This document shows, piece after piece, positions 3,019 to 62,428 of a DNA stretch of 64,000 nucleotides; within the stretch, counting starts at the first letter, position 1; every line of letters begins with the position of its first letter. Made by a program: the position numbers and the translations under genes. The stretch spans positions 314,952-378,951 of the forward strand of contig NMRA01000054.1 of the NCBI GenBank assembly GCA_002633005.1, in the 5' to 3' direction. The stretch comes from Phoronis australis (taxonomy: Eukaryota; Animalia; Phoronida). The notes beneath the pieces are model-generated. The model was not told the DNA's origin. It ran no database searches and was given only the letters and a program-made list of their open reading frames with translations.

Positions 3019-3174
3019 CTTGTATTCTGACCAAACTAGACAGGTCAAACCGCTTGGACTTGTAATCAACTCGACACTGACTGGTGAGAGGATGGTCTAG
3101 ACAGGCATATTGAGTGTCCCAGCTGAATATGTAGGTACAGTGCGATTCTGTCTCAAAAATGGGCTGGCCAGCAC
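3019..3174 (-). CDS. IGF2R: CI-MPR exon 8 (end of domain 3, start of domain 4)
   Basis: [35 protein letters not shown]; gtaaag donor. Confidence 0.92.
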
Positions 3175-23438: not shown

Positions 23439-24456
23439 ACAACAAATATTAGCGGAGGGTGTTAGTTTCCGATTAAATTTGTAAAGCCAATGAACTAAGA
23501 TATCTGCAAAGAATAAGCAGAAAAAATATTTACAAAAAAGATGACATACATATAGTAAATAAGGGTTAGAACTAGAGTTACTACTTGTACGTAGAAACAA
23601 AATTTCTAAGACATATACACTGAAACATGGCCTTACAGATATCGCAACAACTGTACTCGCATAGGCCTACATCCTCAAAATGCTGCCAACCTTCAAAGTC
23701 TGCGTCATCTATTTTTACACGTTGTTGTCTTTCAAATAGACTGCTATGATTTCATCAAATTACTACAAGCGATGAAAACACCATATTTCTGATCCTGTTG
23801 TTATGTGGAACTAGGAAGGAGTGTATAGATAGCAGTGGCGGATCTACGTTTTCAGCAAGGGGGGGTTTAGGATTCCCGCCAAGGTCGAATCGTAGGCGCG
23901 TGGCGCCGAGCGGGGGGAGGTTAGGAGGGGGGTTTCCCCTCCCGTGTAAGATATTTTTTTGTTTTTGTAGCCAAATAGTGAAATTTCCATGCATCCTGGT
24001 AAGTTTCTGGCACTTAACATGTCTCTGGAGTTTTTCTTAAGATAATTAAAAACTNACAACAAATATTAGCTGTGGGTGTTAGTTTCCGATTACTAAATTT
24101 GTAAAGCTAAATTAATGAACTAAGATATCTGCAAAGAATAAGCAGAAAAAAATATTTACAAAAAAGATGACATACATATAGTAAATAAGGGTTAGAACTA
24201 GAGTTACTACTTGTACGTAGAAACAAAATTTCCAAGACATATACACTGAAACATGGCCTTACAGATATCGCAACAACTGTACTCGCATAGGCCTACATCC
24301 TAAATGCTGCCAACCTTCAAAGTCTGCGTCATCTATTTTTACACGTTGTTGTCTTTCAAATAGACTGCTTTGATTTCATCAAATTACTACAAGCGATGAA
24401 AACACCATATTTCTGATCCTGTTGTTATGTGGAACTAGGAAGGAGTGTATAGATAG
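23439..24456 (+). repeat. ~395-bp near-identical direct duplication (23439-23832 / 24056-24456) across an assembly N
   Basis: The copies differ by only a few SNPs and indels; N at 24055 immediately precedes copy 2. Confidence 0.9.
23833..24054. mobile_element. MITE fragment (same family as 10963-11196), cut at an assembly N
   Basis: Starts CAGTGGCGGATCTACGTTTTCAG; ends at the N at 24055. Confidence 0.7.
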
Positions 24457-26073: not shown

Positions 26074-26247
26074 ATGTCGACTGGTGCGAGACCAAGTAAA
26101 AGTTCTCAAGGCAGAACCTTCTCTGCTAACAGAACTCGGATAACTACACCTCCTAAATCAGCAGTAACAGGACAGTCATATCCGGAGATAAAGCAAAGAG
26201 GGTATTATTCAGATATACTTACAGAGGCTGCCAACGAAAGGCTAGGG
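26074..26247 (+). CDS. DNAH1: DNAH1 probable first coding exon
   Basis: Acceptor at 26067, agcATGt start, [17 protein letters not shown]|gtaagt; low-conservation N-terminus. Confidence 0.55.
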
Positions 26248-41200: not shown

Positions 41201-44200
41201 AAGAGATCTTTTGGTCGGGTACGCCTCTGTTGGAGTCGGTTGGCATTAATGAGCCACATGTAGTGGACTTGCGTGAGACTGTGAGAAAAGCAATACAGGC
41301 TGCACTGATACCCATGAAGGCGTATGCTAAAGAGTATGAGAGACACCTGGAGCTGATGAATCTAGACATTAATGCCTATGTCAAGTAAGTTTGTTGTCCC
41401 CAGCAACACTTATTGAAACTTTGTCATATCAGAGACAATAAAGATTAAGTATTAGGTTTCCATGCATTTCTCAATTTATGTTAAGACGTTCACACGCATC
41501 GTAGCACTACTTCAATCCCATGTCTGACTAATCACTGTTTGCCTGTCTGCAGAGAGTATGAGGCCAAAAACCAATCAGCTGCTGAGGTGAAAGCAGAAGT
41601 TGAGATGCACTTGGCAGAGCAGAAGGTCATTGAGAACACAATTCCGAGCAACATTGTGATCGGTCCATTCTGGATTAATACAGAGAATGTGCGCCAGGGA
41701 CTGTCAAAGAAGCGCAAGGCCCTCAGCAATGCTGTGCTGGAACTGCTGGCCAAGAAACTGAGAACTCAGGCCGATGATGTGAGCCTTCCCTGTCTTTTTC
41801 AACATTTCTATGTTGAAAAATAATTGAAAAATTACCATACAAGAATTTCCCTACAGTGTATTGGTCTTAAAGTTGTATTGCATTTTAATGACGAATTTCT
41901 GTGGGTGACTTTGTACTATCATTGAGTTTCACCTTGCTTTCAATTATTATTATAAATATCAACATTGCCAAATTATCTAAGAACGTGATGTAATGTGTAG
42001 TAAATAGTTTTCAAATCCATTTTATTTACTATACATTATGTTTTCCGTATATTATTTATGTCCAGTTTGTGAAAACGTTCACTTTCTGAATCTTCTTAAT
42101 TTATTAGATGTACTAATAAAACTTTCTTGTTGACGGCATTACAGTTTGTCAATTCTCCGATCTTCATCAGGTATTCGTATTCTCTTACCTATATTCTTAC
42201 TCTCTAAGCATTTGAAATAATTGATTCAATTCTTTGTGCCGTAAGCAGTATGCTAACCTCACATGTAAGCTGTACCTAAAGATAAAGTCATGTTTGTTCC
42301 CGGCTTTTCTCTTATCCAGGCATGTGAAGAGTTCAAGTCTATAAGCCGTAAGCTGTATGAGAAATCCAACTGTATCGAGGAGCTGGCTGAGATGAGAGAG
42401 TGGATGAAGACAATCCCCGACACACTGAAGGAGCACAACGAACTGATCGACAAGGCCATGAATGACTACGAGTTGATAGAAGAGTTCTATTACAGTTTGT
42501 CTCAGGACGATTTCAATGCCAAGTAGGTTGAAGGACACTGTGATTTGATTATCGTATAGGGGGACCTTGCTATTGGGCAAATCGGTCACACTCAAATGTT
42601 GAGACTACGTATTAAGAAGTCTTTGTTTACTATATTTAGCATCCACTCCATGGATAGGGGTTGGCTAGCCACACTTCTCTGTGTGGTTTGCTTTCAGGTA
42701 GACCTTGCTGACTGCTTGTGTAACAATTTTATATGCTTGTTGCTGATTTGTCTAATACATTATCTTAAATAAATGATGAACAATGAGGTTCTCATATTTG
42801 GTGTATGATGTTGAATAAGTGGATTGCTATTGGCTCACCACATGAGATTTCCTGATATTTTTTATGAGATATCTATTGCTTGATGACATTCTCACTTGTG
42901 TTGTCTACTTCCATATGGGGTGCTATTGGCTGGCCTATCAGATCCTTCTTACATTTCTATTCTTTTACGAGATTCTATTGGTTGATGGTATTCTCACTTC
43001 CGTTGACGTCTGCTTCCAGGTGGACTGCTATTGGTTGGCCTCACAAGATAGAGCTGCAGATGGAGCAGACATACACTACCCTGGAAGAGGATGAGGAGAG
43101 GTTCCACAAACTGCAGATGACTGACCAGGCCAACTTCAGTGACAGACTTGATACGCTCTCAGTGGGTTCACTATCATGGCATTTAAACCTGTTTTATAAA
43201 CGATACACACAGGGATATATTATTGAAGTTCACCTTGTCACATTGTTAGGTGCAGTTTTAATGTATTAGTGCAACTTTTCCTTTGAATTAAATTCACAAA
43301 TCAGCTGGGATGAACAAGTTTTGTGACTTCTTAGAATTAGAGTTTTCGGGTTGGTAGTTTACATTAAGTTGCATCAAAGTTAACTGTCATGAAGAGGCCT
43401 GATGCTTGTCAGAATAAAATGAAAAATATCTGGTTATAATCATCGTCAAAATCTTTGGACATTTAAGAAGATGGTTTCTTTTCAAAAGTGATGACACTGG
43501 CTAATTTAAATTTTGTGTACACAAAGTATAATTTCAGAGCTTGTTCGTCTCAAAATCTTGTCCATTTGTTTTTGTTATTTTTGGAATTTTTTTATGTCTA
43601 TAAGTTAGAATTATTAGTCTTCATACACGCCATGTGCTGCTAACATCATGTGACCTATAGTTAAGTCTGAAAAGATCTCTATCCCAACCCGGCTTCAAAC
43701 CCCCGCTAATTCATCACAGCACAGTTTTATATCTATGTTACACCCATTCTGCAGTGAAATTTTTAGCTTAAAATTTACTGTGTGAGCTTGAGTTCTGTGA
43801 CCTTTAACCTTTCACAGATGATTGTGGCTGGTATGGCAGCTCATGCTGACCTGAACAAGGCACATGAAGTAGCCAATGAGGTGCGGCGTGTGCACAAGCA
43901 ATTGAAGGAGTGCCAAGGATTGGCCATCACTTACAACAACCGTGAGAGGTTGTTTGGTATGCCTGTCACCAATGTAAGTAACTACAGTCTGGTGGTATTC
44001 TGATGACAGTCAATTTTGGTCCATTTTATATGACAGAATCAAAGGATCTGAGCAAAATGTTGTTTTGATGTTATTTTTTCTTTGTAATGAAGTAGTCAAC
44101 TTTTTTCTCTTTAATTCATATCACTGTTCTGTAAACTCTCATAGTCATAAATGCATCTTTAAATAAAATGCATGTTTTCATTTTTATTAATGCAGAGATT

Positions 44201-47200
44201 GAAATTAATTTATTTGAATTTGAGCATTAGTTTTTTGATTGATATGTACTAGATTTTTGATGTCATTGCATTGTTACAAAACTGACTTATAACTGGTAGA
44301 TTAGATGGCATATTCTTTAAGCACTTATTTTAACACAAAGACTTGGCGAATGTGTTTCACTCACATGTTTTATTAACGGTTGAAGTAATTACATATCCAA
44401 AATCACAATATTTTATTTTGAACTCCAGGATATCGGCGTGATAAATGAACTTCCGAATCTGTCAATTTCTGTTTGTCATTCGTTTTGGTAGAACATTCAA
44501 AATTATGCTAAAAAATTTTAATGTCAATTTCCAAAGCAGACACACTATTTGACATAGATTTTTTAAAGGCTTTGTGTACTCTAACTCATGTGCACACAGC
44601 AATTAAGTATTTCTTCAATGTGGTGAATTACTTCAACCCAACATGAAATTTAACTGCATGTTTTGTCACCTTTTAGTTCCATTTCAGCTCACCATGATTA
44701 ATCTGAATCTAGATAGATTTAGACATGTAACTTGCACTGCATTCAATAGGCGGCGCTGTGGAACATGTAACTTACAGTGCAGCTGATAAGACTACACTGT
44801 GAGACGACATGAAACTTCCAATACAGCTGCTGTGGGACGTGTAACTTGCACTGCAACTTGTAGACTTCACTGTAAACGTGGGAAGAAATAATTTCTGTCA
44901 AAGTCTTTCGACGAGTTTTCTGATTTTGTCTTCGATCATAACCAATGCATGTAGTGAACGCACCAATTGACAATCAAACTAACATTGACTAACACCACCA
45001 ATGCTAACCCATTTCAATGCTTCAGTAAAGTTTTTGCCCTTTCAAAGTAGAACCATTTTATCTTAGGTTAGTGCAACCCAACTTCTTAGTTGTCATTCCA
45101 TTACCACTGTTACTCAGTCTCTTTCTCTCAGCACTCTCTGTTTTATACTTAGTCTTGCTTCTCACATTCATCTGCTTAATAGGCTTATGATGAGGATGGC
45201 AATCTCTATGAGACTTTGGTGAGGCTAACTGTGGTCGACCCCTGTAGACATTCACTTTGAACCCTGTGATGTACCACTCATGATCACACTATCCATCTCA
45301 GTCGTTAGATAAGCACTCCCAAACATTGCCACCAATTTACACTAAGTACCATGAAACGTGTCTTGATCTTGTTGTTTTTGAATTTTTTACAAGTGACTAT
45401 ACATCGTCTAGGAGACAAATCCAACTGAATCGAACTCATCATTTAAAAAGTTAAAATAGATGTCTTCTTGAATTGTTGGAACAGCCTTCCAGTCTTCTTG
45501 TCTCTCCATGATGTTGAAACCCACTCAAACAGATTGAGAATACAATGATGGAATTAACAAATATAAGTTTTTGTTTTAAAAGCCTTTTCAAGTACTTGAA
45601 ATTTTTGCTGAATTTAATGGCAAAAAGGACCCTTTATATGCATTCTTTGTCACGGGGTTTTTGGCTCACAGACTTAGTGTAATTTGAATATGTTTCACTG
45701 AAATTGAATGCAGCACTTAATTATGCATCCTGTCTTCATTATTCATGTCATTTGGATACAGACTAGTAATTACAGCAATGTTTTTTGCATGTTCAGGACA
45801 ACTCCTCCATAGCCTCCTGTTAACTTAACCACTGCTACAGACCTTCAACATAGTGCCATATCCTTAGTATGTAATGCATGGTTATCTCCCCTGCGTCTAT
45901 GTCACAAGCTCCTGTTGTCAAATGCATATGATGGTGATTACTAATTACCTTACATGTACTGTTAGCTAGTAAAGGTAGCCAAGTTGGTCTCACATTTAAG
46001 CATGCACTTTATTCCTACATTTAGGAACAAAACTTAATGGTAAAATCTCACAAATTTGGGACACAGTATGGCAGACACGTGAAATTTTTACTCATTTTTT
46101 TACAAACGATATACAATAATTTCAGAATGAAGCTTTGCCAACTTGTGTACCCTTGCTATCGACAGACAGTATTTTGAACAATTGTGGGCATTCACTACAG
46201 TGTTTGAAGTCCTTGAATATGAATAAAGTGCAATTTTGGCAGTTATTTTGTCTGAAATCGATGAGATTTTAACTGTCTACATTTTTATGTCAATGTTAAT
46301 TAGACCAGAATGGGAGGCATTTGGTCACTCTGATGGTCAAGCAGTTCCAAAGAAACCGACTACGAATACCCATTATAAGTCTTTACTTCTGTCCTCTTCT
46401 TTTGAGCTTGTTTTGCTATAATCACTGTTACTCTCTAGTCGACCTTTGGTCTACTTTGACATCCTTATGAGTCATTACCCTTAAGCCAAGCCTTAGACTG
46501 CTTCTTCCAAGAAGTACGAAGGGCAGATACACTTAGGATCAGCTGCCATTTGTCACCTTGTTTGAAAGAACTTGAGCAGGCATGTCACCATATACCCAGC
46601 AACCTTGCCCTCCTCATTAACTGATTTTTGTAATGTTTTAGACGTTTTCTCATCTCAAGCTCAGTAATGTAAAAGTGTCAGTTTTAACCCATCTTAACTT
46701 TACTAACATGACAGTAAACTAAATACCTGTACACCGTCTCCACCTGTTGTCAACAATGTACCTACTCGTGCCCGTCACGCCATGCATTGGCTATTTTAGT
46801 ATGACAAGCTCACCAAGCTTGTCAAAGACTTTGACCCCTTCCGCAATCTCTGGATCACCGTCTCTGATTGGCTGCGCTGGCATGAGAGCTGGATGAATGA
46901 CCCACTCACCACCATCGATGCAGAGAGTCTGGAGAAGAATGTGAATGAGGCGTACAAAACTATGCATAAGTCAGTGAAGCTGTTCTCTGAAATGCCAAGT
47001 AAGTGGAAGAATTGGTCATGTGACAATTTGGTCACAACACCCAAGAATTATGGGATTGACCGTGGTCTCACTGTTCTGACAATAAAAATGCAATATATAA
47101 AATCTTTGTGGCAGCTTTACAGTACTGGGTGTTTCAGAAAGGTGGGCCTGTGGAGATGAAGCGATTTTATATTAGGTCCAAGTGTTTGAAATGTCTTCTG

Positions 47201-50200
47201 TGCTGTGTATATAGCTTTTATTTTGTTAATAAACCAGTAGTCTGGAAAAGGCATGAAAGCTTATGTAGTATTTTGAATTGAATATTATGTTTATAAATGT
47301 TATAGAAGATATTGTAAGGATATTGTATTTTTGTTGGAATGAACTATTCGACAATCTTGTTCCACAAAGACGTCGATGTGGCTGATGGTAACTTGTCGTA
47401 GCTTATAGGCTGAATGTATAGACTTTATGGAGTGTATGGACTGTATAGACTGTATAGACTTTATGGAGTGTATGGAGTGTATGGACTGTATAGACTGTAT
47501 AGACTTTATGGACTGTATGGACTGTATAGACTGTATAGACTTTATGGATTGTATAGACTGTATAGACTGTATAGACTTTATGGACTGTATGGACTGTATA
47601 GACTGTAGGATGTCATAATGTACTAAGCAACAGCATTTCCTTGTCAAAAGATATAATCAAACAAACAATTTTCATATTAACTAAATTTGTTGTGGAGTAG
47701 TAATTCTCTTGATCGAAAGTATTTCAACATCTATGAGAAAAATCTTTTAAAATACAATAAGCAAGAGAATTCTCGCTTCATTATTTTTTTTTCTTAGTTG
47801 CAAGTCACTGCATAAGAGATTTTGAGTTAAGTTGAAGCAGACCAGTCTTGATATATATTATGTTTGGCACTCTGGAAACAATAGTATACACCACATGTTT
47901 TGACAAGGGTCTGTTGTTGTCTGAATTGTTTTCGTACATTTAATGTGAAAGCCAACACTAATATGTGTAGATAAGGTCTCATGCAGAGTGTTGCCTTATG
48001 TGTACTAACAAAGTTGCCAACTTCAGTGTTGTAATTATATGTGTTCTATATTCAAGGCTACCAGATCCTCATACACCCAAACCCTCAAATTATCTGCACG
48101 AAGTATTAAATCATAAGAACAATTGAATCATTTTCATGAACCATTGAGTCATCCCTCGAACCACTGAATCACCCACTCGAACCATTGAGTTATCACAAAG
48201 CATTGAATGATACAGGTGAACCAACATGTACTCATTTGCGAGATCTTTTAAATTAATTAAAAAATCACCTGTGCAAATATTGAATACCAAGGGCTATATC
48301 ATTTGTGGAAAAGATGCGTAAATGAGTTTCTAGTCATTTGTATGAGTTTTGATTTTGTATGCATGCTTTCTGATCTCACGGTTGGACTGCCTGATTCAGT
48401 GGCTCGTTTCTGTGCCTCATTTAGTTGGTGCATATGATTCAAACCTTGTGTGTATGGTACCCTTGATATTGTGTGCTTTAGGTCTATCAGTGCATTGTTA
48501 CCAACTACTGAAAGACTAGGTTATGAGTTAGTTGTCTTACACTGTTAGTAGTGGATTGCTTCATGTCAGAGTGGCAGTAAATGTTGTTCGAGGTGACATA
48601 GTGACACTGCAACTTTTTGTTGTCCATAACTTAGCTGTTTGTCTGTTCTGTCAAACAGTTTGTGGTACATGAGCTAGAACTCTGAGATTTCCAGTCCATG
48701 AAAACTTCATGGAGATCTCAGTTTATGGCTTTTCAGGTCATGCTTTTCTGATTATGTAAATCAGTATCAACATGAAACCATTTGATAACCTGAAGAGTTG
48801 TCCAATGTGTATTAGATAACAATTTGGGATACAATTTGATAGGCATGCCACGATGTTCTATAGAAGACGCTCACGTGTGTGGTTTAATCCTCGGGGCTGC
48901 ATAGGAATAACTAATGTCAAACACGATGTAATATTACTTTTTTATTTTGTGAGTTTTATGTAGTTCATTGCTCATTATGTGGATTAAATAGATTATTGCA
49001 TGTTTTGGTCATTACTTCTATTTTCTGGAACTGTCATTATATGTGGAAAAATCATCACCCTCAGTGCTCATGGCCATTGGACGATAAATTCTCCAAATTT
49101 CACTCGGTTTCAAGATGTAGGAAATGACCACCTTGCCATGTATTAATGTATATTTCTGTTGGGTCTTTGCTTAGGTGTGCAGGAGATTGCTGTTGAGGTT
49201 AAGCGGATGATTGAAGAGTTCAAGCCCTACATCCCTCTGATCCAGGGTTTGCGGAATCCTGGTATGAGAAACCGCCATTGGGAGCAGGTAGGAACCTGGC
49301 TTAAAGGTCATGTGATGGCTGTAGATATGACGATTCTCTGATAGCAATATTGAAACTATGCATTTGTACAAACAAACTTTACGGTTATTGTTAATATTAC
49401 TAGCTCTATACTCATACTTAACTCTCAGTTAAATGAATGAGCCAAAACATAATTATACAATCGTCTTTGTTGTTGAATTGGGGTCCCTATTTTTAACCTC
49501 CTTTGAGTTCCTTGGTTGTAAACACTCTTAATTACTAAGTGAAAAGATGTAAAGGTACACTTATTTGTTTTATCTGTTCTTATATCTCCTACTATTGACT
49601 GAGCTGTGAGTCTTCTTTGATCCTTGACTATTTATTGCATTTTTCTTTTGCTTGTCCTCATCTCCAGCTATCTGCCGAGCTGGGGTTCTCCGTTCGCCCT
49701 AAAGACTCGCTCACCTTCAAGAAGTGCTTAGAGATGAACCTGGAGCAACACATCCAGACCATTGCCAAGGTTGCTGAGGTGGCAGGCAAAGAGTACTCCA
49801 TTGAGCAGGCTCTGGACAAGATGGAGGCTGAATGGGCGCCAGTTGTCTTCGAGATCCTGCCCTACAAAGACACAGGGACATACATTGTCAAGGCATCAGA
49901 GGAGACGTCGCAGCTCCTTGACGATCATATTGTTATGACACAGAGCATGTCGTTCTCACCATTCAAGAAGCCATTTGAGGAACGTATTAACACATGGGAG
50001 AACAAACTGCGCACAACTCAGGTAGATTTTTCAAATTTTAAAACCATTCCTTCATATAAATTAGACTGTGATACAATATTGTCGAATGTTAAACTGAGGT
50101 CACACCAAAACACAGATATGATGATTATATTCAATGATGTATTAGCTTCTTGTAGTAGTGATACATTTTTAGTATACTGTGGCTTTCATGTTACCATAGA

Positions 50201-53200
50201 ATCACTGCTGACGAAATGTTATTATTCCCTCCCCCACACTAGGATGTTCTTGATGAATGGCTGGTCTGCCAACGCTCATGGCTCTACCTAGAGCCTATCT
50301 TCAGTTCCGAGGACATCAACCGCCAACTGCCGGTGGAAAGTAAGAGGTACCAGACCATGGAGAGGATCTGGCGTAAGATCATGAAGCAGGCACGCGACAA
50401 TCCACAGGTAAGTGGCTAGTAGACGAGGCCACACACTGTTGGTGTTACAGTTGATTGACAATGATCACTCAGTCCTCTTCATTTTTGTACTTAAATAGCA
50501 CATTAAGCCTCATTGATGGTGATTGGTTACTGTATTTGTCCATGTTGAAGACTTGCCTAAATTTTGTTGCACAATCTAGAATTTTATTTCCTATAGAACA
50601 CCCATGTTTTTGCACTTTGTAAACAGCTGTTTATGAAGAATTTCAACTCCTAAAATGCATGGAAGATATCCGTCAAATGTTTTACTTGACTCTCCAATGC
50701 TCACTGTTTCCCAGCATAAAATAACTGTTACCGTTGTGGTGTCCTGTGCAGGTGATCTCACTGTGTCCAGACAGTCGACTGCTGGATAACTTGAAGGAGT
50801 GTAACAAACTGCTGGAGCAGGTACAGAAGGGTCTCAGTGAATACTTGGAAACCAAACGCAATGCCTTCCCACGATTCTACTTCCTGTCTGATGACGAGCT
50901 CTTGGAGATCTTGTCACAGACCAAGGACCCCACTGCTGTCCAGCCTCACCTGAGGAAGTGCTTCGAGGCTATCGCTAAGGTATACACGCAAGAGATTTCT
51001 TTCGCTCATTGTTTTTCATTTAAATGATAGCATCAGAATTAAAAAGTGAGACACAGATTTTAAAATCAACACTAATGTATCAGACTATTCATTTCAATGT
51101 CTTAGTTTTAAAACAAATTCTTCATTACTGACCACAACTGAAATCCTGAATCAATTTAGAGTCTAGACTAGATGACTTTCATATTTGTTACACGCCAGTA
51201 CTATATGTAGGTATATCATCTGGAACCCCTATCCCCTAGCACATCTTAAGTTGATGTTGATGATTATAAAGATCGTTATCTAGGTGAGATGTTCGCAATG
51301 CATTGTATAAAATGTTAGTTGAATTAAGTAGAGCTTTTCTATTACATCCTATCCAGTGTACTGCTGTCAACTCACAGGTATATGATGTAGGATTTGATGT
51401 TGGTGTCGGGATGTTTATGAACAATTTCAGTAATAAGCAGCTATGCGCACTGTGGTAGAATAGTAGGCTTTTGATGGTTAGAGTTGACTAAAACAAATAG
51501 TATTCATTAAAATGAAAACTAATTGTTTTTCAACGTTTCACGTTTCTAGCTGAAATTTGAAGACGATCTGCAGATCTCAGTGATGTACTCTGCGGAAGGT
51601 GAGGAGGTTCCCCTCAAGGAGGTGCTGTACCCCACGGGTAACGTGGAGGACTGGATGTTGGAGATTGAGCGTGTGATGAAGGAGACTCTCAGACTGACAC
51701 TCAAGGAAGCTCTGGATAACTACAAGGAGGTGGGTGGTGTTTTGGGCGGTGCTCTGTGATTGATTGATGGGTGAATCTCCATCCCCTGCCGTAGTTGGTT
51801 AACTTGGGAGGAGTCATTTTGCCTGTGGCATATAATTCTTCAACTTTTTTACCAGCTGTAATTATCTGGCAAAATATGTCTGTTGGATGTTTTGTTGACA
51901 ATGTATAAATGTGGCAATTAGTACGTAACTCGTTTATCTCACTGTAACGTTGCAGAAGAGCAGTGATTAGTGAAACTTGAATTTTACTAGTAGTCACCTC
52001 TGTGTGTACCATGTATGAAGTAGGCAGCAATACAGACGACAGAGTACCTCTTACCACTAGTTTGTTTACCATATTGTAGGTGCCGCGCACCAAATGGGTT
52101 CTGAGCTGGCCAGGTCAAATCGTCATCGCTGGTTGCCAGACGTACTGGACGTCGGAGGTTACGGAAGCGCTGGAGCGTGAGGACATTGAAGGCATCACAC
52201 CACACATCCTTGGCCAGCTAGACGACCTCCGCACTCTGGTGAGGGGTAATTTGACACGGACTGAGCGACAGATTCTGTCAGCGCTCATTGTAATTGAAGT
52301 ACACGCCAGAGATGTGGTACTTAAGATGGTGGAGGAGAAGGTGTCAAACGTGAATGACTTTGAGTGGATCAGTCAGCTCAGGTGAGTGCCTGTGTTTGTT
52401 TATATCAACTTGTGTCAGTTAATTTAACCAGTAGATATAAGTTGGCATCTAGTTTTTATTCGTTTTACTTCTTTGAAACTTTAATTTTCGTGTTAAGCCA
52501 AAACTGATAATGGATTGGTTGTCTCCTTGCTGTTGTATTGCTTAGTGTGAAAGTGAATCAAAACATCATAGGATGCATTGATTTTTTAAAACATTTTTAG
52601 CGTTTTGGCAAAAACTACACTAATTTGGGAACATATAGGGTATGGATATATAGGGTATTGTTTAAAATGTGAAATAATCTGTCAGCTATGCGATGTAATA
52701 TTTTCCTTCTTTTCATTCATGTGTCCAGGTACTATTGGATGGAAAGCGATCTGAAGACTCGTGCTGTCAATGCCGAGTTCCAGTATGGTTATGAGTACCT
52801 AGGTAACAGTGGGCGACTTGTCATCACACCTCTGACTGATCGCTGCTACCTCACTCTGACTGGTGCTCTCCATCTGAAGTTTGGTGGTGCCCCAGCCGGT
52901 CCCGCTGGTACTGGCAAGACAGAAACCACAAAGGTAACGTGTTGACTGACTGGCTGTTAGTTAGTGGCAGTCTTCTTCAGTTGCAATACATTTTGTTTGA
53001 GAACAGACTTTCATTACTTGCAGAAAGGACTTGCCCTTCTTACACAGTGAGGACTGATGTGAAATGACTGGAAAGTAGAATTTGGTTGTTATGTGCTCTT
53101 TGCTTTGGTTGGGATTGGGTGGAATATTGATTTGTGCTATAAGTTAAATTTAATAATGTCATTGTACCTAACAATGCATTTTATGCTAATGCAGGATTTA

Positions 53201-56200
53201 GCCAAGGCAATGGCTATTCAGTGCGTCGTCTTCAACTGTTCTGATCAGCTTGACTTCATGGCTATGGGCAAGTTCTTCAAAGGATTAGCAAGGTATTTAT
53301 GATCCAGACTTCTTTAAACTTTTATGAAATCAAATTTGATTTATTTATCTACTCATTTTTAATCTTCTGCCAAATGCCAGAATGCAGTGTAGAGAAATTG
53401 TTTAGTAATATATTTACGTTTTGCTTTGGATTTGTTACAAAATCAAAAGCAGTGAGTGACTTTGCAGAGGTGAGTTTGCTTAACTGGTAGTAGTTTGAAT
53501 CGTTTTAAAAAAATGTATAATCAAAATTTCCCAGTTTTCCAAATGTTCTCAGTTCATGGTTTTGGAATGAAGGTAATGTAACTCATGTTGTGTATTTTTA
53601 TGCGCCCACATATTTATATGTGGACGCATTATGCCGTCATCTCCGTCCGTCCGGCGTCCATCCGGCATCCGACGTCCGCTGCTCTATCTCCAAAACCCTT
53701 TGACATACATTCATGAAATTTTGCACATATGTTCCATTCATAGATGGGATGGCATGAGCGAAGTTTTGGACGGATCCAACTACTGGTGTGCCCCCTAGTA
53801 GCATTTTTATTTTTTTACACTTACCTCTATATCTTCAAAGGTCCTCGACGTATTTTCATAAAATTTGGCATATGGGCATCTATTAGTGAGATGACACTCT
53901 CCTCCCATTTTCGGATTTTATTCGACATAGTTTGCGCCAACACTTTATCAACCAAACCACTCTGAGGATGATTGTGAAAATTGGTATGTACTATGTTCTT
54001 ACTATAAAGAGGATGGCTGTCGATGATTTTCTGAGGATTTTGACTACTATGGCGCCTCTTAGTGGCAGTTTTGTTTTTTGCGCCCGTAGCTGTATCTCCT
54101 AAATCGTTGGCAGGATCTTTACTAAATTTAGCAAGTGTATTTATATGATGTTGGCAATGGATGACGACGACTTTCGGACATATCTGACTACCGGTGTGCC
54201 CTCTAGTGGCAATTTTAGTTTTTTACGTTTACTTCTGTATCTTCAAAAGTCCTCAACATATTTTCAGAAAAATTTGGCATATAGGCATCTATTAGTGAGG
54301 TGACACTATCCTCCCGTTTTCGGATAGATTTGACATAGTTTGCATCACATAGTGGCCATTTTTGTTGTTTTCCATTCTATCAACCAAATCGTTCTAAGGA
54401 TGATTGTGAAAAGTGGTATGTTTGTTCTGACTATGAAGCTGATGATTTTCCAATGACTTTGAATACTGTGGCGCCTCCTAGTGGCATTTTTTTCTGCACA
54501 TGGCTGTATCCCCTAAATTGTTTGCAGGATCTTCACTAAATTTAGCAAGTGTATTTATATGATGTTGACAAGTGACAACGATGACTTTCTGACCGATGTG
54601 ATTACTTGTGTGACCCCTAGTGGCCATTTTAGTTTTTTACGTTTACCTCTGTATCGTCAATGTTCCTTAACAGATTTTCTTAAAATTTTGAATTTTGGCA
54701 TCTATTGATGAGATGACGCTATCTTCCCGTTTTCTGATGGAATTGAGGTATTTTGCACCGCCTAGTGGCCATTTTTGCTGTTTTCAAGTCTTGTTTTTGG
54801 CATCCACCCCTGTATCAACCAAATCAAGCTAGGAATGGTTTTGAAAATTGGCGTATATGTTGTCGGTGTGAAGAGGATGTTTGATGATGGCGACTAACTA
54901 CTGTGGCGCCTCCTAGTGGTAGTTTTGTTTTGTTTTGCGTCCATAGCTGTATCCCCTAAACCCACTACAGGATCTTTATTAAATTTAGTAAGTGTATTTT
55001 TATAAAGGTAACAAAAGACGACGACGACTTTCAGGCGGATCCAAGAGACGCTGTGCCCACTAGTGGCAATTTCATTTTATTCTGCTTTCCTTTGTTTCTC
55101 TGCAGTTCTTTGACAGAGTTTTATGTTCCTGTTTTTGGATGGATTGTACGTTTCTGCGCCATCCAGTGGTTATTTTCACACCATTTGCAATGCATTCAAG
55201 GGCGCATCTCAATGCTCCGCTTTGCTCTTGTTAAAACATTTTGTGGTGAGAAGTTTTTTATCTGCTGTAAAAGTTTGTCTGTCTGTTTGTCTGCCATATG
55301 TGTCATGGAGTGCATTTTCTAGCTCGGGTGCGTGGGCTTGCTTCGACGAGTTCAATCGCATTGACATTGAGGTGCTGTCCGTGGTTGCCCAGCAAATCAC
55401 CACCATTCAGAAGGCTCAACAACATCGGGTGAGACTCACGTCTGCTCCACGACTCTGCAGATGTCTGCTACACTACTTTTCAGTTTATGTTCTGTATTCT
55501 TGCCTTTGCTAATGTGACTGCATCAGTGAATTGGATCATGATGATTGGATTTGTCTGAATCAAATAGATTGAAACTGGTGTTGTCAATTGACATTTGGTT
55601 TTTGAAATTAAAAATGAATAATATGTTCACTTTGTAATTTTGTAAAGCCAATTTGATGGACTTGGTTACTGTTTAGATTCAAATGTTCAAAATTGTCTAC
55701 CAACCCTTTGACAATTTCTTAGTTTTAAAATTGAAATGTTTGAATTTGAAACAACTACTTATTGATAGATTTTATGAATGGCTTGTACAAATCTACAAAG
55801 AATGTCCTTAGTTGCTTTTGATCCGTGAAGTCTTTGATCCACAAACTCTGAAAAACTTGGAATTTCAGTTGCATTGATGCAGTCCAAATTATCTTATATA
55901 TTCATTACCTTTCAGGCTTCTTTCTTCACCAGGTGCTATCTTATTGGTTGTTGAGCATTCCTGTGGAATGTTTAATTATTAGTTATTCATTTCTTCGCAT
56001 TTTTTTTTGTTTCATTTCATTTGTTTTTGCATTATGTACAGTTCTGGTGCCTGGGCCTGTTTCGATGAGTTCAACCGTATTGATATTGAGGTGTTATCAG
56101 TGGTTGCTATGCAAATCACAACTATTCAAAAAGCGCAGATGGATCGGGTGAGATGGAGTGGTGCCATGGCAACGATGTGTGTGGGGTGCTTCAGTTAACA

Positions 56201-59200
56201 ATTTGTCTGAGTTTTTATTGGTAACATGCACTTTAATCCTTTCATGCACAGCTTTGTAATAAAATGAATGACGGGTTGTGTTTGCGTGTGTTTGTTAAAG
56301 AGTGTTTGTGGTGAACTTAAGACAATTTACAGTGTGTGTGTATGTGTGTGGTTTTACTGAATTCAGCAAATGACCTGAGTGTTTAAAATTCTAATGCCAT
56401 GCATTTGACACACTGGATGACCACGAGTTCTGTGATTAATCTATCGCTTGTGGCAACAGTATTTAGGATCTTTGAAAACATTTGAAGAAATCAACTGCTA
56501 ATTAAAACTCAGCACTGAATTGCTGCTGCAGTTTTAACTAGTTATTGAGATCAGAATAAATTGCAGACTGTTGCTCATGGCATGTTATATAATTCATGAG
56601 GATATTTAGGTGTAAAACATGTGTAGTCAAGTGTTATAGGAGTGGTGGACTTGCAAGCCAAGGGTCGTGAGGTTCAATCCCTTCTTGTGTAGCTGTGTAT
56701 TAGCCAACCCAATAAGCATGATTACTTGTGAAGGATTTACTTTTTTCTTGAAAAAACATATGTCCCTGACTGTGGGCAGTAGTCAGAAAAGCCTGTAGCA
56801 TGAAAATTTATATACCAATTGAATTATGAAGACTGATATTTTAGCCTGTTAACCGGGTTTGAAAGAGACCAAATGAAAGTAATATAAAAAAATTCAAGGT
56901 AGAAAAATGCTGACAGCGTAAGTTTGAAAGCTGTCTATTCACAGATTAGTTCCTGACTTACCAACACAGCCCAAAAATAGACATACCCCAGTACTAATCT
57001 AACAATTAAATTACCGAGTTGTCAGAAAATAACTAAATGGCAGGAAATTTGAAATCAAGTGATATGCATTTCATCAGCTGTCAATTACTTTCCTAGTTGG
57101 ACCGGTTCATGTTTGAGGGGGTGGAGCTTGTGCTGAAGGCTTCCTGCTCTGTTTTCATTACGATGAACCCGGGCTACGCAGGTCGCACAGAGCTGCCAGA
57201 CAATCTCAAGGTAAGGCGAGTACAGGAATGCCATCCAAAATGTGGTTTTAGACTGCACGACATGTAATTTGTGATTATGCTTTGGCCCATGGGATTGTGG
57301 GTAATTAAAATTGCAGCATGTCATGACATTCTCCGAGCAGAGTAGGTCATATGGGATTCATGTATGTTTTGTGTCATCACCAATATTGCCCAGCTGAACA
57401 TGTTGTCTCACACAACTCCTGGTTGTAAAAAGTTCTATATTTTTTACATCTTATGAAGATATGAAAGTGTTAATATGAATTGCATCAACGTCTTAATTTC
57501 ACATTTGGTGACCCATTTCACTGAAGGGTACAACATAGCTGTGGTTCTTATGACTTACTAGATCTCTGTGACTGTTTCAGGCATTGTTCCGCCCTGTAGC
57601 TATGATGGTACCTGATTACGCGCTCATCGCCGAGATCAGTTTGTTTTCATTCGGCTTCTCTGACGCCAAAGTGTTGTCCAAGAAGATCACCACCACCTTC
57701 AGACTGTCTTCAGAACAGCTCAGTGCACAGGTATGAGAAACAATGCTGGTGTTTGTTGTTTCATAGAGGATCTTTAACTAGTGCATTATTGTTCCACTTT
57801 GTGCTAACTCACAAGCTTGGCTGTCATCCCAGTGAATGATCAACATCCACATAGTGTCTGTTCATCTTGTTGTGATGACAGTCTAAGTACATGGAAATAG
57901 GTTGTTGGTTTGCACTATCAGTGGTTAGTTGTTCATTTTTCTCTCCTGCCATGGTTGTTTTAAAAAATATTCCAGGTGTATTTGCAACCTTAAGATTAAA
58001 GTGCTAAGGTTGTGGCATTTCATTCGTGTCTAGAGGTACTTGCTGCTTTTCCTATTACGTGGTTGTAACAGAGTGTAGTGGTGCTGAGGTACTGGTGGTT
58101 TCACGGGGTACTTAGAAGTTATTGCTGCTTGAGGCTGGCCTAAATCAATATTTTATATTCAGAACCTTGTGGATGGATGACTTACGCCTCTGGCTACTAT
58201 GCAACCAATATCCACACTGTCATATGTTTTTCTACTGCAGGATCATTATGACTTTGGCATGCGTGCTGTGAAGAGTGTCATCTCTGCTGCAGGAAATCTC
58301 AAGAGACAGAACCCTAACATGAATGAGGTAAATAACGGCATTTACCGTCTTTGACTGGTTTGTTTCCATTCAATGTTTTTCATAACATAACAACTTCACA
58401 TTGAAATAAGAAATCAGCTGAAACCAGTGTGAGAGGCACTTATCAAAGTTTTGTACCACCATGTCGGCAGTGTACATCTCACATGACGTTAACATTGGAG
58501 CCACCCATATTTTTGTTTCGGTCCTCCCGAGCATTACAACATTTGCTCCCCTTTCTGCAGGAGCTGATCACACTGCGAGCCATCAGAGATGTCAATGTTC
58601 CCAAGTTCTTGTCAGAAGACTTGAAACTGTTCAACGGTATCGTGTCTGATCTGTTCCCCAACATCAAGTAAGTCACTCAAGTTTAAGTTCAATGTGATCA
58701 CCTTCTACGTGGCACAGCTTTCACGTCAGCTGAGTATCCACCGTAATGTTAAACTGGCATTAAAGCTCAATTAGTCACCATGTTCTAGAGCCTTTTTCTT
58801 AATAATAATATATTTAATTAGGCAGTGAAGGTCCTTCTTTCGCAACGATGTCCTGCACGAAATGTTTATCTTTCCTGAAATATGTGAATTGAAAAGTTTT
58901 TGAAAACCGCTAAGTAATGAAATATAATTAAAAATTCTTTCTGATGGCGTGTGTCTGAGACCTGCTTATTGTCTAGACGTATCCCCATGGATTTTAATGA
59001 AAGGTAAGCTTCAATTCTGTTACTCATCGTATGTTTGTCCATTCCACAGGGAGGAGCCAATTGACTACGGTGAACTCCAGGCCACGTTGACAGCAACTTG
59101 TCAAAAGTTGGTGCTGAAGGATGTGCCCGACTTCATTCACAAGTGTATCCAACTGTATGAGACAACTGTGGTACGGCACGGGCTTATGTTGGTGGGACCG

Positions 59201-62200
59201 ACGGGCTCTGGCAAGACTAAGGTGAGCTGGGCATTCTAAAGATGTGACGGTTTTGGGTGTCTTCACATTGGGCAGAGTTTCTTGTCAGTTTTTCCGTGTC
59301 AGAACACTCTTGCCAGATTTTGGCTACATAAGGTTAAAAAGAGTATCCGATAAACTGGCTATCATTAATTTTTAAGGGACATTTAAATGCATTTTGCTTG
59401 GTTATTGAAAAGGTGTTCATCATTTTGTAATATTTTGTGTGTAAACATTTTAAAGCAGATGGTTACTGTACATTGACAAGACAAGTATAGTTCATTTAGT
59501 ACATTTTACCAAATCGAAAATAGACAGAATTCATTTGAATGGAATTGACATATTTCAGTAGCAAATACCATATTTATAATAGGTTTTATCTCGATTACCA
59601 AAAATAAAAACTACAATCCACTATGCTTTACAAATTCTGGCCACAAATTGATCAGTGGTTATTTAACAGCAGCATTGTCAAATAGTTGTTTGTTCTTTCT
59701 GAAGGTGGCACTGCTCTTTTTTTTGATTTTAGGAAAACATGGTATGCTGCAAGTTATTGGTAAAACATAGCTCAGCAGTGAAGTAGGGCAATTTCCAAAG
59801 TCATTTATACTATTTTTTATTTATATCTGTGAAGTAATTAAAAAGGAATTTGCTAATTAATGAAAAAAAAAATTTTTTGCGAAAATGGATTTTTCTGTTG
59901 AAAACAGATAACTTGCATCTTTATATTTTATGGTAGGCTGTGTGGATTTTTGGTATATGACAATCAGACAATTATTCCGTGTTTGTAGTAAAAGTAAATT
60001 AGATCTTGAAAGCAACATAAGTCAAGAGTAATTATTTGGTTTATTTTTTATCTGTTATGTGTATATAGGCCAGGTGTAGTCTGTATCAGATTGTTAACAA
60101 ATAACTTCATTTTTTGCTCCGTCTGAATTTCAGTGCTACGAAGTGCTGCAGAAGGCTATAACCACGCTGAATGGAATTATGTCCCCTGCTGGAATGCCCT
60201 TCACCCCTGTACACACGTATATCCTCAACCCCAAGTCCATCACGATGGGTCAGCTCTACGGTGAATTTGACGCCATGACCCATGAATGGTAAGAGGATGT
60301 TTGACTGTGTCTGGCATATTTAGTGTCACGCTAAGTGGTGGTTAGTCTTAGTGAACCAACTGAGTTATTACACTAAGTGATCTCACCATAACAGCAGTAG
60401 GGCTATCCCAGACCATAATGTGGAAATCTGATGCCACATTTTGTCCAAGCAACAATTTGAATTTGGTGTTAAAATCCAATGACTTATTTGTAGGACGGAT
60501 GGTATCCTCTCTTCCCTTATCCGTCTGGGCTGCGCTGCGCAGAATGATGACAAACGGTGGTACCTGTTCGATGGTCCTGTTGATGCTGTTTGGATTGAGA
60601 ACATGAATACTGTATTGGATGACAACAAGAAGCTGTGCCTCAGCAGTGGAGAGATTATCAAATTATCAGAGGTAAGACTGGGTTAGTGTGTTGAATTAGA
60701 CAAGGAGGTACGGTGACCTTTCTTCCCATTTTCCACAACTGGTGTCAACCCAGTGTGAAACAATTATGTTCACTACAAAGAATCACTATTAGTATTCTTA
60801 ACATGTTTACATACTGTTGCTTTTACCATTGGGCCATTGTAAGGTTGTCAAGAGATATAAACCATTACCAATGCTCGTCTATTGCTCTTTATGTCTCATA
60901 AAGCCTGTAACCCTTTTGTGTTGTAACAAGCCAGGGCTCAGACAATGTTGAATTGCCCAGTAATACTGTGTTCACACTGTGCAAGACTGATAAATGAAAG
61001 TTTTTATCAGTGAAATAGTGTAGCATGAAAATGCATTGAAATTTATCTCACCGCCGCCTGTCTGTTTCACATTAGTGTAAATGGTCACCATAACTGACAT
61101 CAGATTTTGCAAGGAGCAATTTCATGGTGATCGTGAACATGCTTTCTGCGACACAGTTCTGAAGTTTTTCAAATATTTGTGACCGAACATTATTCAACAT
61201 GTGTTACAATTTATGATAATTATTTACAGTACATAAATTCCATGTCAGGAGTATTGTACTGTATTGTATTGCATTGTATAATCTGAAAAAATGCATGTCT
61301 TGCCAGGATATGACTATGATGTTCGAGGTGGCTGACCTTGCTGTTGCATCCCCGGCCACCGTCAGCCGATGTGGCATGGTCTACCTGGAGCCCAGCATTC
61401 TGGGATTAGAGCCCTTTGTTGAATGCTGGCTACGTGTCATCCCTGAAGCAGTGTACGAACAGAAGGAAAAGATGAAGAGCATGTTTGACTTCTTTATGGA
61501 GGTACTGCTAGCAGTTTATGTTTCCTGTTTGTATTTCTGATAAATTCTGTTTATAGTGTTAAAAATGATTGGTTGACGTTATTTGTCCCCTGACTCTCGC
61601 TGAGTCGTCTGTGTGTTCAATTAGGGGAAAGTCTTGTGAATTTCGAGAGCTTTTGGAAGGATGGGGGGATACAAGATCCCACTGTTTTGCTTGTTAGTAC
61701 TTACATCACTAACCAAAACTTGCAAAATGTCAAGTACTATTTTGAGATAACATTTCTGGATGTTTGTTGACTTTTAATGGTAAGTGTTGTATAGGTTGTA
61801 ATTGTTAGTCTAGTCTACTGTTACTCTACTGTTACTGTCTGTCTATCATTACTTGTTGTTGGGCCTAGCAAGGTGGCCACTGTTTTTTCATTTGAGGATG
61901 GTGTTTTGCTAAACGCTGAAACATTTCAAGCCGGTTTAAATCCATCGTTGTTTTCATTAACATATGCTGCTACTTGCTATCATGGAGATAAGTATTGTTT
62001 TAATCGTACGGTGCTTTGTCATTTGTTGGCCTAAGACTAGCCGTTATCCTGCAAGTTAATAATGTTGTTTGATGCATCTTTGGTCCCTCTTCATCATATT
62101 TGGACACATTAACCATAGCTTCTACCAAAAATATTTGGAAAAATTGTGTACATTCACAACAATCGTAGAAACCAGTGAAATATAAAAAGGGCAATTTTAG

Positions 62201-62428
62201 CAATTATTTTTGTGCGAAATTGGTGACATTTTACCTTGAATGCGATTCTAAAAATTGTGTTATCATGCCGATATGATCAAGGTTAATGCATGTCACCTTT
62301 GTTCACAGGATGCAATAAAGTTTTTGCGCAAGAACTGTAAAGAAATGGTGCCTACTATGGACAGTAACCTGTGCATGAGTCTGCTCAAGCTGCTCGACTG
62401 TTTCTTTGCACCGTTCATTCCTAAAGAG
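26074..62428 (+). CDS. DNAH1: Axonemal inner-arm dynein heavy chain, DNAH1-like, 5' half (N-terminus to AAA2); continues beyond the window
   Basis: About 35 GT-AG exons, with continuous phase from 31820 to 62428. DNAH1-type N-terminus ([46 protein letters not shown]); linker ([19 protein letters not shown]); AAA1 Walker A GPAGTGKT and Walker B CFDEFNR; AAA2 GPTGSGKT; [25 protein letters not shown]. Confidence 0.95.
29066..29261. mobile_element. Palindromic MITE-like element
   Basis: Long imperfect inverted arms (acaaaacgtacc..catgaagtaatatcccact / agtgggatattacttcatg..ggtacgttttgt) with nested inner hairpins. Confidence 0.65.
29743..31439. mobile_element. Non-autonomous Tc1/mariner-superfamily (pogo/Tc2-like) element
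   Basis: 24-bp TIR CCGTAATC(A/G)TTCGGGTTAACGCCC, TA on both flanks, subterminal TTAA(C/G)CGCCC arrays; no transposase ORF; N at 30768. Confidence 0.85.
31820..31905 (+). CDS. DNAH1: DNAH1 exon
   Basis: [28 protein letters not shown]; tttcag / gtaagt. Confidence 0.75.
32189..32277 (+). CDS. DNAH1: DNAH1 exon
   Basis: [30 protein letters not shown]. Confidence 0.9.
32809..33095 (+). CDS. DNAH1: DNAH1 exon
   Basis: [40 protein letters not shown]. Confidence 0.92.
33929..34090 (+). CDS. DNAH1: DNAH1 exon
   Basis: [28 protein letters not shown].. Confidence 0.9.
34494..34746 (+). CDS. DNAH1: DNAH1 exon
   Basis: [30 protein letters not shown]. Confidence 0.92.
35553..36620 (+). pseudogene. THAP-domain transposase remnant of the Kolobok element
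   Basis: [27 protein letters not shown] (THAP with two in-frame TAG stops); CQVC..C..GH zinc motif; frameshift near 36420; then [22 protein letters not shown], truncated. Confidence 0.82.
36615..36888 (-). pseudogene. KolX-like Cys-rich accessory protein remnant (P2X7 C-terminal-like motif)
   Basis: [34 protein letters not shown]; convergent with the transposase and cut at the internal deletion. Confidence 0.78.
37562..37719 (+). CDS. DNAH1: DNAH1 exon
   Basis: [31 protein letters not shown]. Confidence 0.9.
38613..38827 (+). CDS. DNAH1: DNAH1 exon
   Basis: [36 protein letters not shown]. Confidence 0.92.
39268..39435 (+). CDS. DNAH1: DNAH1 exon
   Basis: [35 protein letters not shown]. 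Confidence 0.92.
39844..39974 (+). CDS. DNAH1: DNAH1 exon
   Basis: [28 protein letters not shown]. Confidence 0.9.
40385..40535 (+). CDS. DNAH1: DNAH1 exon
   Basis: [31 protein letters not shown]. Confidence 0.9.
41191..41384 (+). CDS. DNAH1: DNAH1 exon
   Basis: [28 protein letters not shown]. Confidence 0.9.
41553..41778 (+). CDS. DNAH1: DNAH1 exon
   Basis: [37 protein letters not shown]. Confidence 0.92.
42320..42522 (+). CDS. DNAH1: DNAH1 exon
   Basis: [37 protein letters not shown]. Confidence 0.92.
43020..43161 (+). CDS. DNAH1: DNAH1 exon
   Basis: [31 protein letters not shown]. Confidence 0.92.
43818..43973 (+). CDS. DNAH1: DNAH1 exon
   Basis: [23 protein letters not shown]. Confidence 0.92.
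46800..46998 (+). CDS. DNAH1: DNAH1 exon
   Basis: [36 protein letters not shown]. Confidence 0.93.
47415..47607. repeat. 9-bp tandem repeat TAT(A/G)GA(C/G)T(G/T), ~21 copies
   Basis: Read directly from the sequence; explains the spurious low-complexity ORFs. Confidence 0.97.
49175..49287 (+). CDS. DNAH1: DNAH1 exon
   Basis: [26 protein letters not shown]. Confidence 0.93.
49668..50021 (+). CDS. DNAH1: DNAH1 exon
   Basis: [38 protein letters not shown]. Confidence 0.94.
50243..50407 (+). CDS. DNAH1: DNAH1 exon
   Basis: [36 protein letters not shown]. Confidence 0.94.
50752..50979 (+). CDS. DNAH1: DNAH1 exon
   Basis: [48 protein letters not shown]. Confidence 0.95.
51550..51729 (+). CDS. 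DNAH1: DNAH1 exon
   Basis: [35 protein letters not shown]. Confidence 0.93.
52080..52381 (+). CDS. DNAH1: DNAH1 exon
   Basis: [45 protein letters not shown]. Confidence 0.95.
52729..52933 (+). CDS. DNAH1: DNAH1 exon, AAA1 Walker A
   Basis: [34 protein letters not shown]. Confidence 0.96.
53195..53292 (+). CDS. DNAH1: DNAH1 exon (AAA1)
   Basis: [32 protein letters not shown]; ends in phase 2. Confidence 0.95.
53598..55232 (+). mobile_element. Helentron/HINE-like non-autonomous element with internal tandem array
   Basis: 5' ttATGCGCCC subterminal repeat plus hairpin, (GTCC)n microsatellite, ~410-440 bp tandem units (starts ~53787, 54196, 54609, 55053) built from ctagtggc-containing subunits, 3' GGGCGCAT and ctTGTT end. 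Confidence 0.72.
55323..55428 (+). CDS. DNAH1: DNAH1 AAA1 Walker B exon, variant A (mutually exclusive candidate)
   Basis: [35 protein letters not shown]; 106 nt, ttttctag / gtgaga, phase 2 to 0. Confidence 0.93.
56042..56147 (+). CDS. DNAH1: DNAH1 AAA1 Walker B exon, variant B (mutually exclusive candidate)
   Basis: [35 protein letters not shown]; 106 nt, long pyrimidine tract plus tacag / gtgaga, phase 2 to 0. Confidence 0.88.
57097..57210 (+). CDS. DNAH1: DNAH1 exon (AAA1 sensor I)
   Basis: [28 protein letters not shown]. Confidence 0.96.
57581..57730 (+). CDS. DNAH1: DNAH1 exon
   Basis: [35 protein letters not shown]. Confidence 0.96.
58241..58327 (+). CDS. DNAH1: DNAH1 exon (sensor II)
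   Basis: [29 protein letters not shown]. Confidence 0.96.
58561..58667 (+). CDS. DNAH1: DNAH1 exon
   Basis: [33 protein letters not shown]. Confidence 0.96.
59050..59221 (+). CDS. DNAH1: DNAH1 exon, AAA2 Walker A
   Basis: [27 protein letters not shown]. Confidence 0.96.
60134..60288 (+). CDS. DNAH1: DNAH1 exon
   Basis: [22 protein letters not shown]. Confidence 0.95.
60494..60671 (+). CDS. DNAH1: DNAH1 exon
   Basis: [44 protein letters not shown]. Confidence 0.96.
61307..61501 (+). CDS. DNAH1: DNAH1 exon
   Basis: [26 protein letters not shown]. Confidence 0.96.
62309..62428 (+). CDS. DNAH1: DNAH1 exon (last in window)
   Basis: [40 protein letters not shown]. Confidence 0.92.

Follow-up and report, generated by a model that had tools for sequence, protein, structure and literature searches.

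Does the DNAH1 gene of Phoronis australis encode two versions of its motor by swapping a single exon? The question is raised by a stretch of 64,000 nucleotides (here referred to as the window) in which the exon encoding Walker B of the AAA1 domain, together with the helix that follows it, is present twice in tandem. An earlier note, made from the letters of the window, had proposed that exactly one of the two copies, exon A or exon B, is used in a transcript. We conclude that the copies are probably a regulated pair of mutually exclusive exons, lophotrochozoan and ancient, with A used by default and B restricted, and we are reasonably confident that in this species B is a regulated, translated alternative to A. 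The main result is conservation across lineages: as judged from sequence, the pair is present in three other lineages and is implied in a fourth. The features discussed below are as follows.

26083..62428, plus strand: DNAH1 gene, first to last exon matched by tblastn (tail, linker, AAA1 and the start of AAA2)
52729..52933, plus strand: constitutive exon bearing AAA1 Walker A (from sequence and RNA read depth)
53195..53292, plus strand: upstream constitutive exon, phase 2 end; this end matches the loose ends that 3 reads carry ahead of exon A
53594..55215, strand not assigned: interspersed repeat, located between the upstream exon and exon A and containing tandem units of roughly 400 nt
55323..55428, plus strand: exon A, the default copy, encoding the Walker B strand (S3) and helix H3; its helix end is polar
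55429..56041, plus strand: intron separating exons A and B, 613 nt
56042..56147, plus strand: exon B, second copy (Q23M, Q33M, H34D); splice sites intact, no spliced read in the runs read
56154..56356, plus strand: intron stretch following exon B, rich in UG and closed by a (TG)n run; post hoc motif
57097..57210, plus strand: downstream constitutive exon; PS-I hairpin plus the subsequent strand

The host gene and its surroundings

The identity of the gene as DNAH1 (class DHC8/IAD4 in a supplement table of PMC5100056) was upheld. The best PDB match of exon A is DNAH1, the three mammalian chains listed sharing 33 of the 35 exon residues, and a linker exon likewise has DNAH1 as its best PDB match. 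The motor exons are 71-77% identical to three DNAH1 proteins versus 54-57% to six DNAH3/7/12 proteins. Tail, linker and AAA1 are found in order in the window, and the gene runs past position 62428, beyond the window end. The nearest of 28 reference proteins is that of the nemertean Tubulanus (78.7%), followed by molluscs (76-78%); in a FastTree phylogeny the window protein is nested in lophotrochozoan DNAH1, beside Tubulanus (support 0.60), with no supported sister. In tblastn searches with named DNAH1 proteins, the Walker B/H3 exon was the sole doubled DNAH1 exon in the window.

The repeat in the intron before exon A has related copies at 1-570 and about 4390-5240. Thousands of RNA reads, almost all in a single direction, align to it with 90-95% identity; as far as tested, the repeat has no part in the mechanism. 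A direct duplication (23439-23832 and 24056-24456, 96% identical) flanks a single N at 24055 and is probably an overlap left by the assembly, within the gene start or close to it. On the minus strand, 2876-3247 and 6262-6447 are exons of a cation-independent mannose-6-phosphate receptor-like gene (Pfam CIMR); should this gene reach towards DNAH1, the two would be arranged head to head.

Two intact exons of which one must be chosen

Exons A and B are tandem and homologous, equal in length (106 nt) and in phase (2 to 0), and both have AG acceptors and the identical donor CGG/GTGAGA, the slash marking the exon border. Their positions, spacing and borders are as the earlier note had given them. 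The reading frame is open from the upstream exon through either A or B into the downstream exon. When A is spliced to B, a stop is encountered at codon 9 of B, and when both copies are skipped, the frame is shifted; the frame logic proposed earlier holds on both counts. Walker A and Walker B of AAA1 are intact in both exon forms.

The copies differ at 25 of 106 bases (76% identity). Among the 35 whole codons, 15 are the same, 17 differ synonymously and 3 non-synonymously, giving, in exon numbering, the replacements Q23M, Q33M and H34D from A to B. The split first codon differs silently too, which makes 18 silent differences in all, so that our recount agrees with the earlier one once this codon is included. 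The A-B divergence that was to be computed amounts to a pS of 0.82 (saturated, beyond correction) versus a pN of 0.065, and in none of 20,000 simulated draws of 24 random changes were three or fewer residues altered. On this codon evidence both exon copies are under purifying selection, and the old duplication that had been postulated is borne out.

We give virtually no weight to the idea that the pair is an assembly artefact or a second haplotype set in tandem. It is true that the window holds the 96% duplication beside a gap described above. However, exons A and B are only 76% identical and their flanking introns show no relation (ungapped identity of 30-50% over 20-100 nt), none of the three N in the window (10079, 24055 and 30767) is near the exon pair, and other animals carry the same pair (see below). 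The earlier judgement that an artefact is unlikely is thus shared by us.

Transcripts in the RNA that could be searched

RNA was chosen by species label and consisted of three raw runs and one contig set (X1-X4; tissues not given), with about 18-19% of each raw run being covered and a joint being listed only at three or more reads. The joint of exon A to the downstream exon was found in 10 reads of X1 and 4 reads of X2, so that the predicted junction 55428-57097 is present in 14 reads, and in 3 reads of X1 the end of the upstream exon precedes exon A, also as predicted. Exon A is the form seen in RNA of this species label. X3 and X4 had no reads on the stretch. No exon B junctions were listed in X1 and X2 (about 18-19% of the runs, three-read minimum), and no A-to-B joint was listed in the RNA runs, at a depth of about 10 and with three reads needed for a joint. 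Since none of the 14 junction reads uses B, its share should be under about 19% in samples X1 and X2.

Reads on exon B itself were present (11 in X1 and 12 in X2), and they depart from the B sequence at 56056-56063 and carry loose ends that belong to other dyneins, one flank resembling what we take to be cytoplasmic dynein-2. Exon B depth was rejected as a measure of expression, because a second read mapping traced those reads to other dyneins; by the counts, all 11 + 12 are attributable to other dynein genes. In the 3' part of B, X2 has a depth of 0 and X1 one of 1.36, the latter being about what three paralogue reads would produce, and one or two genuine B reads may be present in X1.

Exon B is likely spliced in place of A in a cell type or at a stage outside these samples. 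It is unlikely, in our estimate, that B is functional in relatives and disused in this lineage, A-like as a result of gene conversion or recent loss. Such disuse would account for the 14 junction reads without B and for a copy that is only 3 residues from A and shares its donor region. But the synonymous sites are saturated, which conversion would have erased, and B contains no stop or frameshift, has normal splice scores and retains the hydrophobic position 33 of the second copies of other animals.

The same exon pair in relatives

A search of metagenome contigs with a pattern of the Met form yielded two stretches, L001 and L002, in both of which the same exon is doubled, with the same borders, 461 nt apart. 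The stretches are 93% identical overall and are probably two haplotypes; their gene is bivalve-like, with 93% identity to Mya in an alignment of 420 residues. Comparison of the two stretches shows 2 silent and 0 replacement changes in the first copy and 4 silent and 0 replacement changes in the second copy, the latter with P = 0.003 under neutral draws.

In the annelid Paralvinella palmiformis, gene model P0276 (found among 120 full-length matches of 3,074) has both copies in tandem, the Gln form and then the Met form, the second of which runs on into intron-like sequence. When the second copy of P0276 was used as query (113 matches of 150 candidates), the top match after the query was isoform X3 of the abalone Haliotis rufescens. 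Isoforms X3 (XP_048258404.1) and X4 (XP_048258405.1) are 4227 aa each, and all 6 differences between them are located in this exon; isoforms X7 and X5 are separated by the same 6 differences, and the second exon type is found in 2 of 10 Haliotis models. RefSeq isoform models are usually built on RNA reads. A further exon-bounded protein, P0025, resembles a second copy.

One form of the exon is found in four models of Octopus sinensis/vulgaris and another in three models of the O. bimaculoides type. As many as 13 of the 140 differences between O. sinensis and O. bimaculoides fall into this 35-residue segment, the top segment of all (mean 1.2), so that an exon pair is implied in Octopus DNAH1 by the protein sequences. 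The pair, which the earlier note had proposed to look for in related genomes, is thus present in L001/L002, Paralvinella and Haliotis in addition to this implied case.

Annotated DNAH1 models were surveyed in 19 groups (20 clusters) with at most 15 members each. Two clearly different forms were found in two groups, Haliotis and Octopus, and the other 17 have one form, or variants by 1-2 residues. The single-form groups are 8 deuterostome, corals, 3 flatworm, 2 insect and one cluster without species names, and only the A-like form was found in Mya (7 models) and two neogastropods (3 models). The pair was not found in annotated models of 15 non-mollusc groups; because the survey rests on annotations, such absence does not equal absence from the genomes. 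Babylonia areolata has two DNAH1-like genes (P0279 and P0363; scaffold of same length), and since the second gene is diverged and its models have A-like exons only, gene duplication might replace the exon pair there.

A scan of viral contigs returned no further loci, and among prokaryote-labelled contigs 12 dynein loci (L003-L014) were found, none with the exon pair; one is DNAH1-like, intron-containing and single copy. These twelve contigs, placed in bacterial genome bins, carry eukaryotic axonemal dynein genes, two of them with apparent ciliate-type stop reassignment, and are contamination of the bins.

The relatives also bear on whether the pair might merely control dosage, with both exons together, or an inefficient B, routing DNAH1 transcripts to nonsense-mediated decay and the B protein mattering little. 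The both-exon and no-exon products are indeed frameshifted, and B is rare in the RNA sampled. A poison exon, however, needs no conservation of its protein, yet the pN of B is as low as given above and the second copies of L001 and L002 differ by silent changes only. In addition, the A-to-B joint is not listed in RNA and the abalone models of the B isoform are full-length. We therefore consider dosage control very unlikely and retain the view that B is an alternative coding exon.

Origin of the pair

We lean towards a single origin of the pair in a lophotrochozoan ancestor, before the mollusc-annelid split. In a tree of the 35-residue exon, all six B-type rows are on one side, if weakly so (support 32/89), and label shuffles as clustered as the B rows were obtained in 2 of 500 cases. 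Grouping A with B species by species was rejected for Octopus only (p-AU 0.037) and not for Paralvinella (0.06), L001 (0.09), the window (0.16) or Haliotis (0.30), in a test from which four identical rows were removed, as was one of two A rows with the same sequence.

Independent exon duplications in several lophotrochozoan lineages, with the second copies converging, appear rather doubtful to us; this alternative concerns origin only and is compatible with the explanation preferred here. It draws on the fact that the tree is not resolvable from 35 residues, that four of the five species-wise pairings were not rejected and that the distribution of Met23 differs among lineages. Set against it are the choice of the same exon each time, the same order in 3/3 pairs of known order, the polar-to-hydrophobic change at position 33 in 5/5 pairs, a best tree that unites all B copies, and 15 non-mollusc groups without the pair in annotated models. 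Window B is 3 residues from A, whereas the other B copies are 6-13 from theirs. This closeness, together with the 11 bases across the donor that A and window B have in common, fits lineage-specific duplication or gene conversion, and the origin of window B is the least sure because it is the least diverged copy.

Residues that differ between the two forms

Five pairs were compared (window, L001, Paralvinella, Haliotis and Octopus), with A and B being assigned by sequence in Haliotis and Octopus. Secondary structure, and only this, was taken from an AlphaFold2 model of a DNAH1 fragment from a cestode (P0051; alignment of 45 rows, mean pLDDT 90.6). In this model, exon positions 4-8 are a strand and positions 15-33 a helix, followed by a hairpin from the next exon. 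By our own mapping, these elements would be strand S3, helix H3 and the PS-I insert as described by Gleave et al. 2014 (PMC4047620), where the insert is stated to fold across the H2-H3 cleft and, in inner-arm dyneins, a PS-I Glu to be positioned to meet AAA6.

Positions 4-14, which contain Walker B, have no differences in the five pairs. The differences cluster at positions 23, 26, 29, 30, 33, 34 and 35, each in 4 or 5 of 5 pairs, and on a helical wheel this variable stripe is about 145 degrees off the hydrophobic face. The stripe may face AAA6 or a partner. In 5/5 pairs, one copy has a polar and the other a hydrophobic residue at position 33, the helix end being more hydrophobic in the second-type copy, again in 5/5, and the hydrophobic copy is second in 3/3 pairs of known order. 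Window B keeps this hydrophobic residue.

Two claims of the earlier note have to be revised. First, the atypical Met of exon B is not the shared trait. Met23 as a mark of exon B was rejected, since it is also found in the main forms of abalone, Mya and Tubulanus and in the first copy of L001; common to the five second-type copies is the hydrophobic position 33. Across dyneins, position 23 is Q in 108, S in 13, T in 9, E in 5, A in 3, M in 2 and V in 1 (n=141), and a hydrophobic residue 33 is present in 14 of 162 dynein motifs. The single annotated form of several insect DNAH1 proteins (P0030, P0031, P0396, P0404 and others) is hydrophobic at position 33, and that of other insects has Gln there. 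Second, the changes are not at the catalytic site; they are located 14-25 residues past the catalytic Glu, where the second half of H3 adjoins the PS-I hairpin. The catalytic residues are the same in A and B, and because positions 23 and 33 vary among ordinary dyneins, exon B should give a working motor and the residue changes may be functionally mild.

How one exon may be chosen

The donors of A and B both score 7.8 and the acceptors 5.5 (A) and 4.9 (B), the scores of B falling inside the range spanned by 20 donors and 20 acceptors of the same gene. With ordinary splice scores in both window copies, the silence of B suggests regulation. Steric exclusion, according to PMC5740500, operates when the distance from the first donor to the second branch point is under about 50 nt. 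It was rejected here, since introns of 613 nt (window) and 461 nt (L001) are too long for it in its simple form; the AG-free zone before B is 57 nt, so that a distant branch point is not indicated. A docking/selector set of the Dscam type was not found among the 25 longest inverted repeats of the window or L001, a screen that may overlook weak pairings, nor did the window and L001 yield a conserved block of intron sequence. The end of exon A (55410-55423) and a segment about 80 nt before exon B (55947-55960) are 93% complementary over 14 nt; chance suffices to explain this, given 48 listed pairs.

The intron behind B is UG-rich, a motif picked after viewing the sequence. In the window, UGU-richness behind B ranks first of 20 donors at 200 nt, being marginal or tied without the (TG)n run; in L001 the intron behind the second copy comes first of 12 donors in UGU-richness at all lengths tested. 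In C. elegans neurons, a CELF protein bound to a stretch of this type is reported to select a mutually exclusive exon (PMC3585155). This analogy makes the stretch behind B a candidate, though a weak one, for a splicing element of the CELF type. In L001, the 200 nt that follow the second exon (1980-2179) are very UG-rich and have 2 differences to L002, compared with about 5 per 100 elsewhere, and a perfect TACTAAC is located upstream of that exon. All three TGCATG motifs of L001 are between the copies, and none is present in the A-B intron of the window.

Proposed mechanism and its meaning

In the mechanism that we propose, A would be the default exon and B the regulated one; for human clusters of mutually exclusive exons it is reported that often one exon is dominant and the other tissue-restricted (PMC5740500). 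Exclusion would be achieved by regulated choice, with nonsense-mediated decay clearing the frameshifted products that contain both exons or neither. The B form would be a second motor with a more hydrophobic H3 end, in which the changed residues form a single stripe on the outside of H3, adjacent to the PS-I hairpin and on the side placed near AAA6 in the literature, and B would alter ring dynamics or a surface contact rather than ATP chemistry. The pair would have arisen once, in the lophotrochozoan ancestor.

As for the place where B is used, our guess is sperm flagella, which we consider quite possible; sensory or neuronal cilia are unlikely, sites other than those named here equally so, and larval ciliary bands somewhat less likely still. 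The broadest form of the idea is offered tentatively: a splice switch older than the mollusc-annelid split could provide one axoneme type, most plausibly sperm flagella, with its own DNAH1 via the outer face of AAA1 H3. If this is true, lophotrochozoans achieve by one exon what mammals achieve by duplication of whole dynein genes. The two motors would match over about 4,200 residues save for 3 to 13 positions on one AAA1 helix. Retained as it is in several lineages of invertebrates, the pair amounts to a clean natural experiment that asks which surface of AAA1 tunes an inner-arm dynein. It is also a warning for annotation, for gene models take one copy at random (Octopus) or merge both (Paralvinella).

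Comparison with known systems

A literature search, outside subscription journals, revealed no description of the DNAH1 exon pair, and nothing on it is contained in the accessible parts of PMC5368703 and PMC4427456. According to Kollmar 2016 (PMC5100056), some dynein genes have motor-domain alternative splice forms, which are left unanalysed there; two of its supplements make no mention of the pair, and file 1 may hold such annotation.

The closest case is very probably the same system: in Haliotis rufescens, isoforms X3/X7 versus X1/X2/X4/X5/X6 (XP_048258402-408) have the same exon in two forms in one gene. It differs in being an automated annotation without description, in a more diverged second copy (6 residues) and in having Met23 in both copies, whereas in the window there is read support for A only.

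In a dynein heavy chain, a mutually exclusive exon was described by Pillmann et al. 2011 (PMC3228551) for SmDHC1, a cytoplasmic dynein heavy chain of Schistosoma mansoni. As in the window, tandem homologous exons of equal length are present, only one of which fits. SmDHC1, however, is a cytoplasmic dynein-1 with codons split at both exon ends, whereas the window pair belongs to an axonemal DNAH1, runs from phase 2 to phase 0, is located in the AAA1 ATPase domain and is found across several lineages. The muscle myosin heavy chain genes of arthropods, as summarized in the same paper, likewise swap parts of the motor domain by means of duplicated exons, which are said to adapt mechanochemistry finely to different muscles; in myosin there are many clusters whose tissue use is known, and in DNAH1 one pair with 3 to 13 residues changed. 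Duplicated mutually exclusive exons are thus a well-known mechanism in motors, to which the DNAH1 pair adds a case that has been silently present in RefSeq.

Cell-type-specific axonemal motors, the outcome that the window pair may serve, are obtained in mammals by a swap of paralogues: in sperm, the outer-arm proteins DNAH8/DNAH17 replace DNAH5/DNAH9, for reasons called unclear by Leung et al. 2025 (PMC11779644). In mammals this involves duplication of whole genes and the outer arms, whereas in the window it would involve one exon of a single-headed inner-arm dynein.
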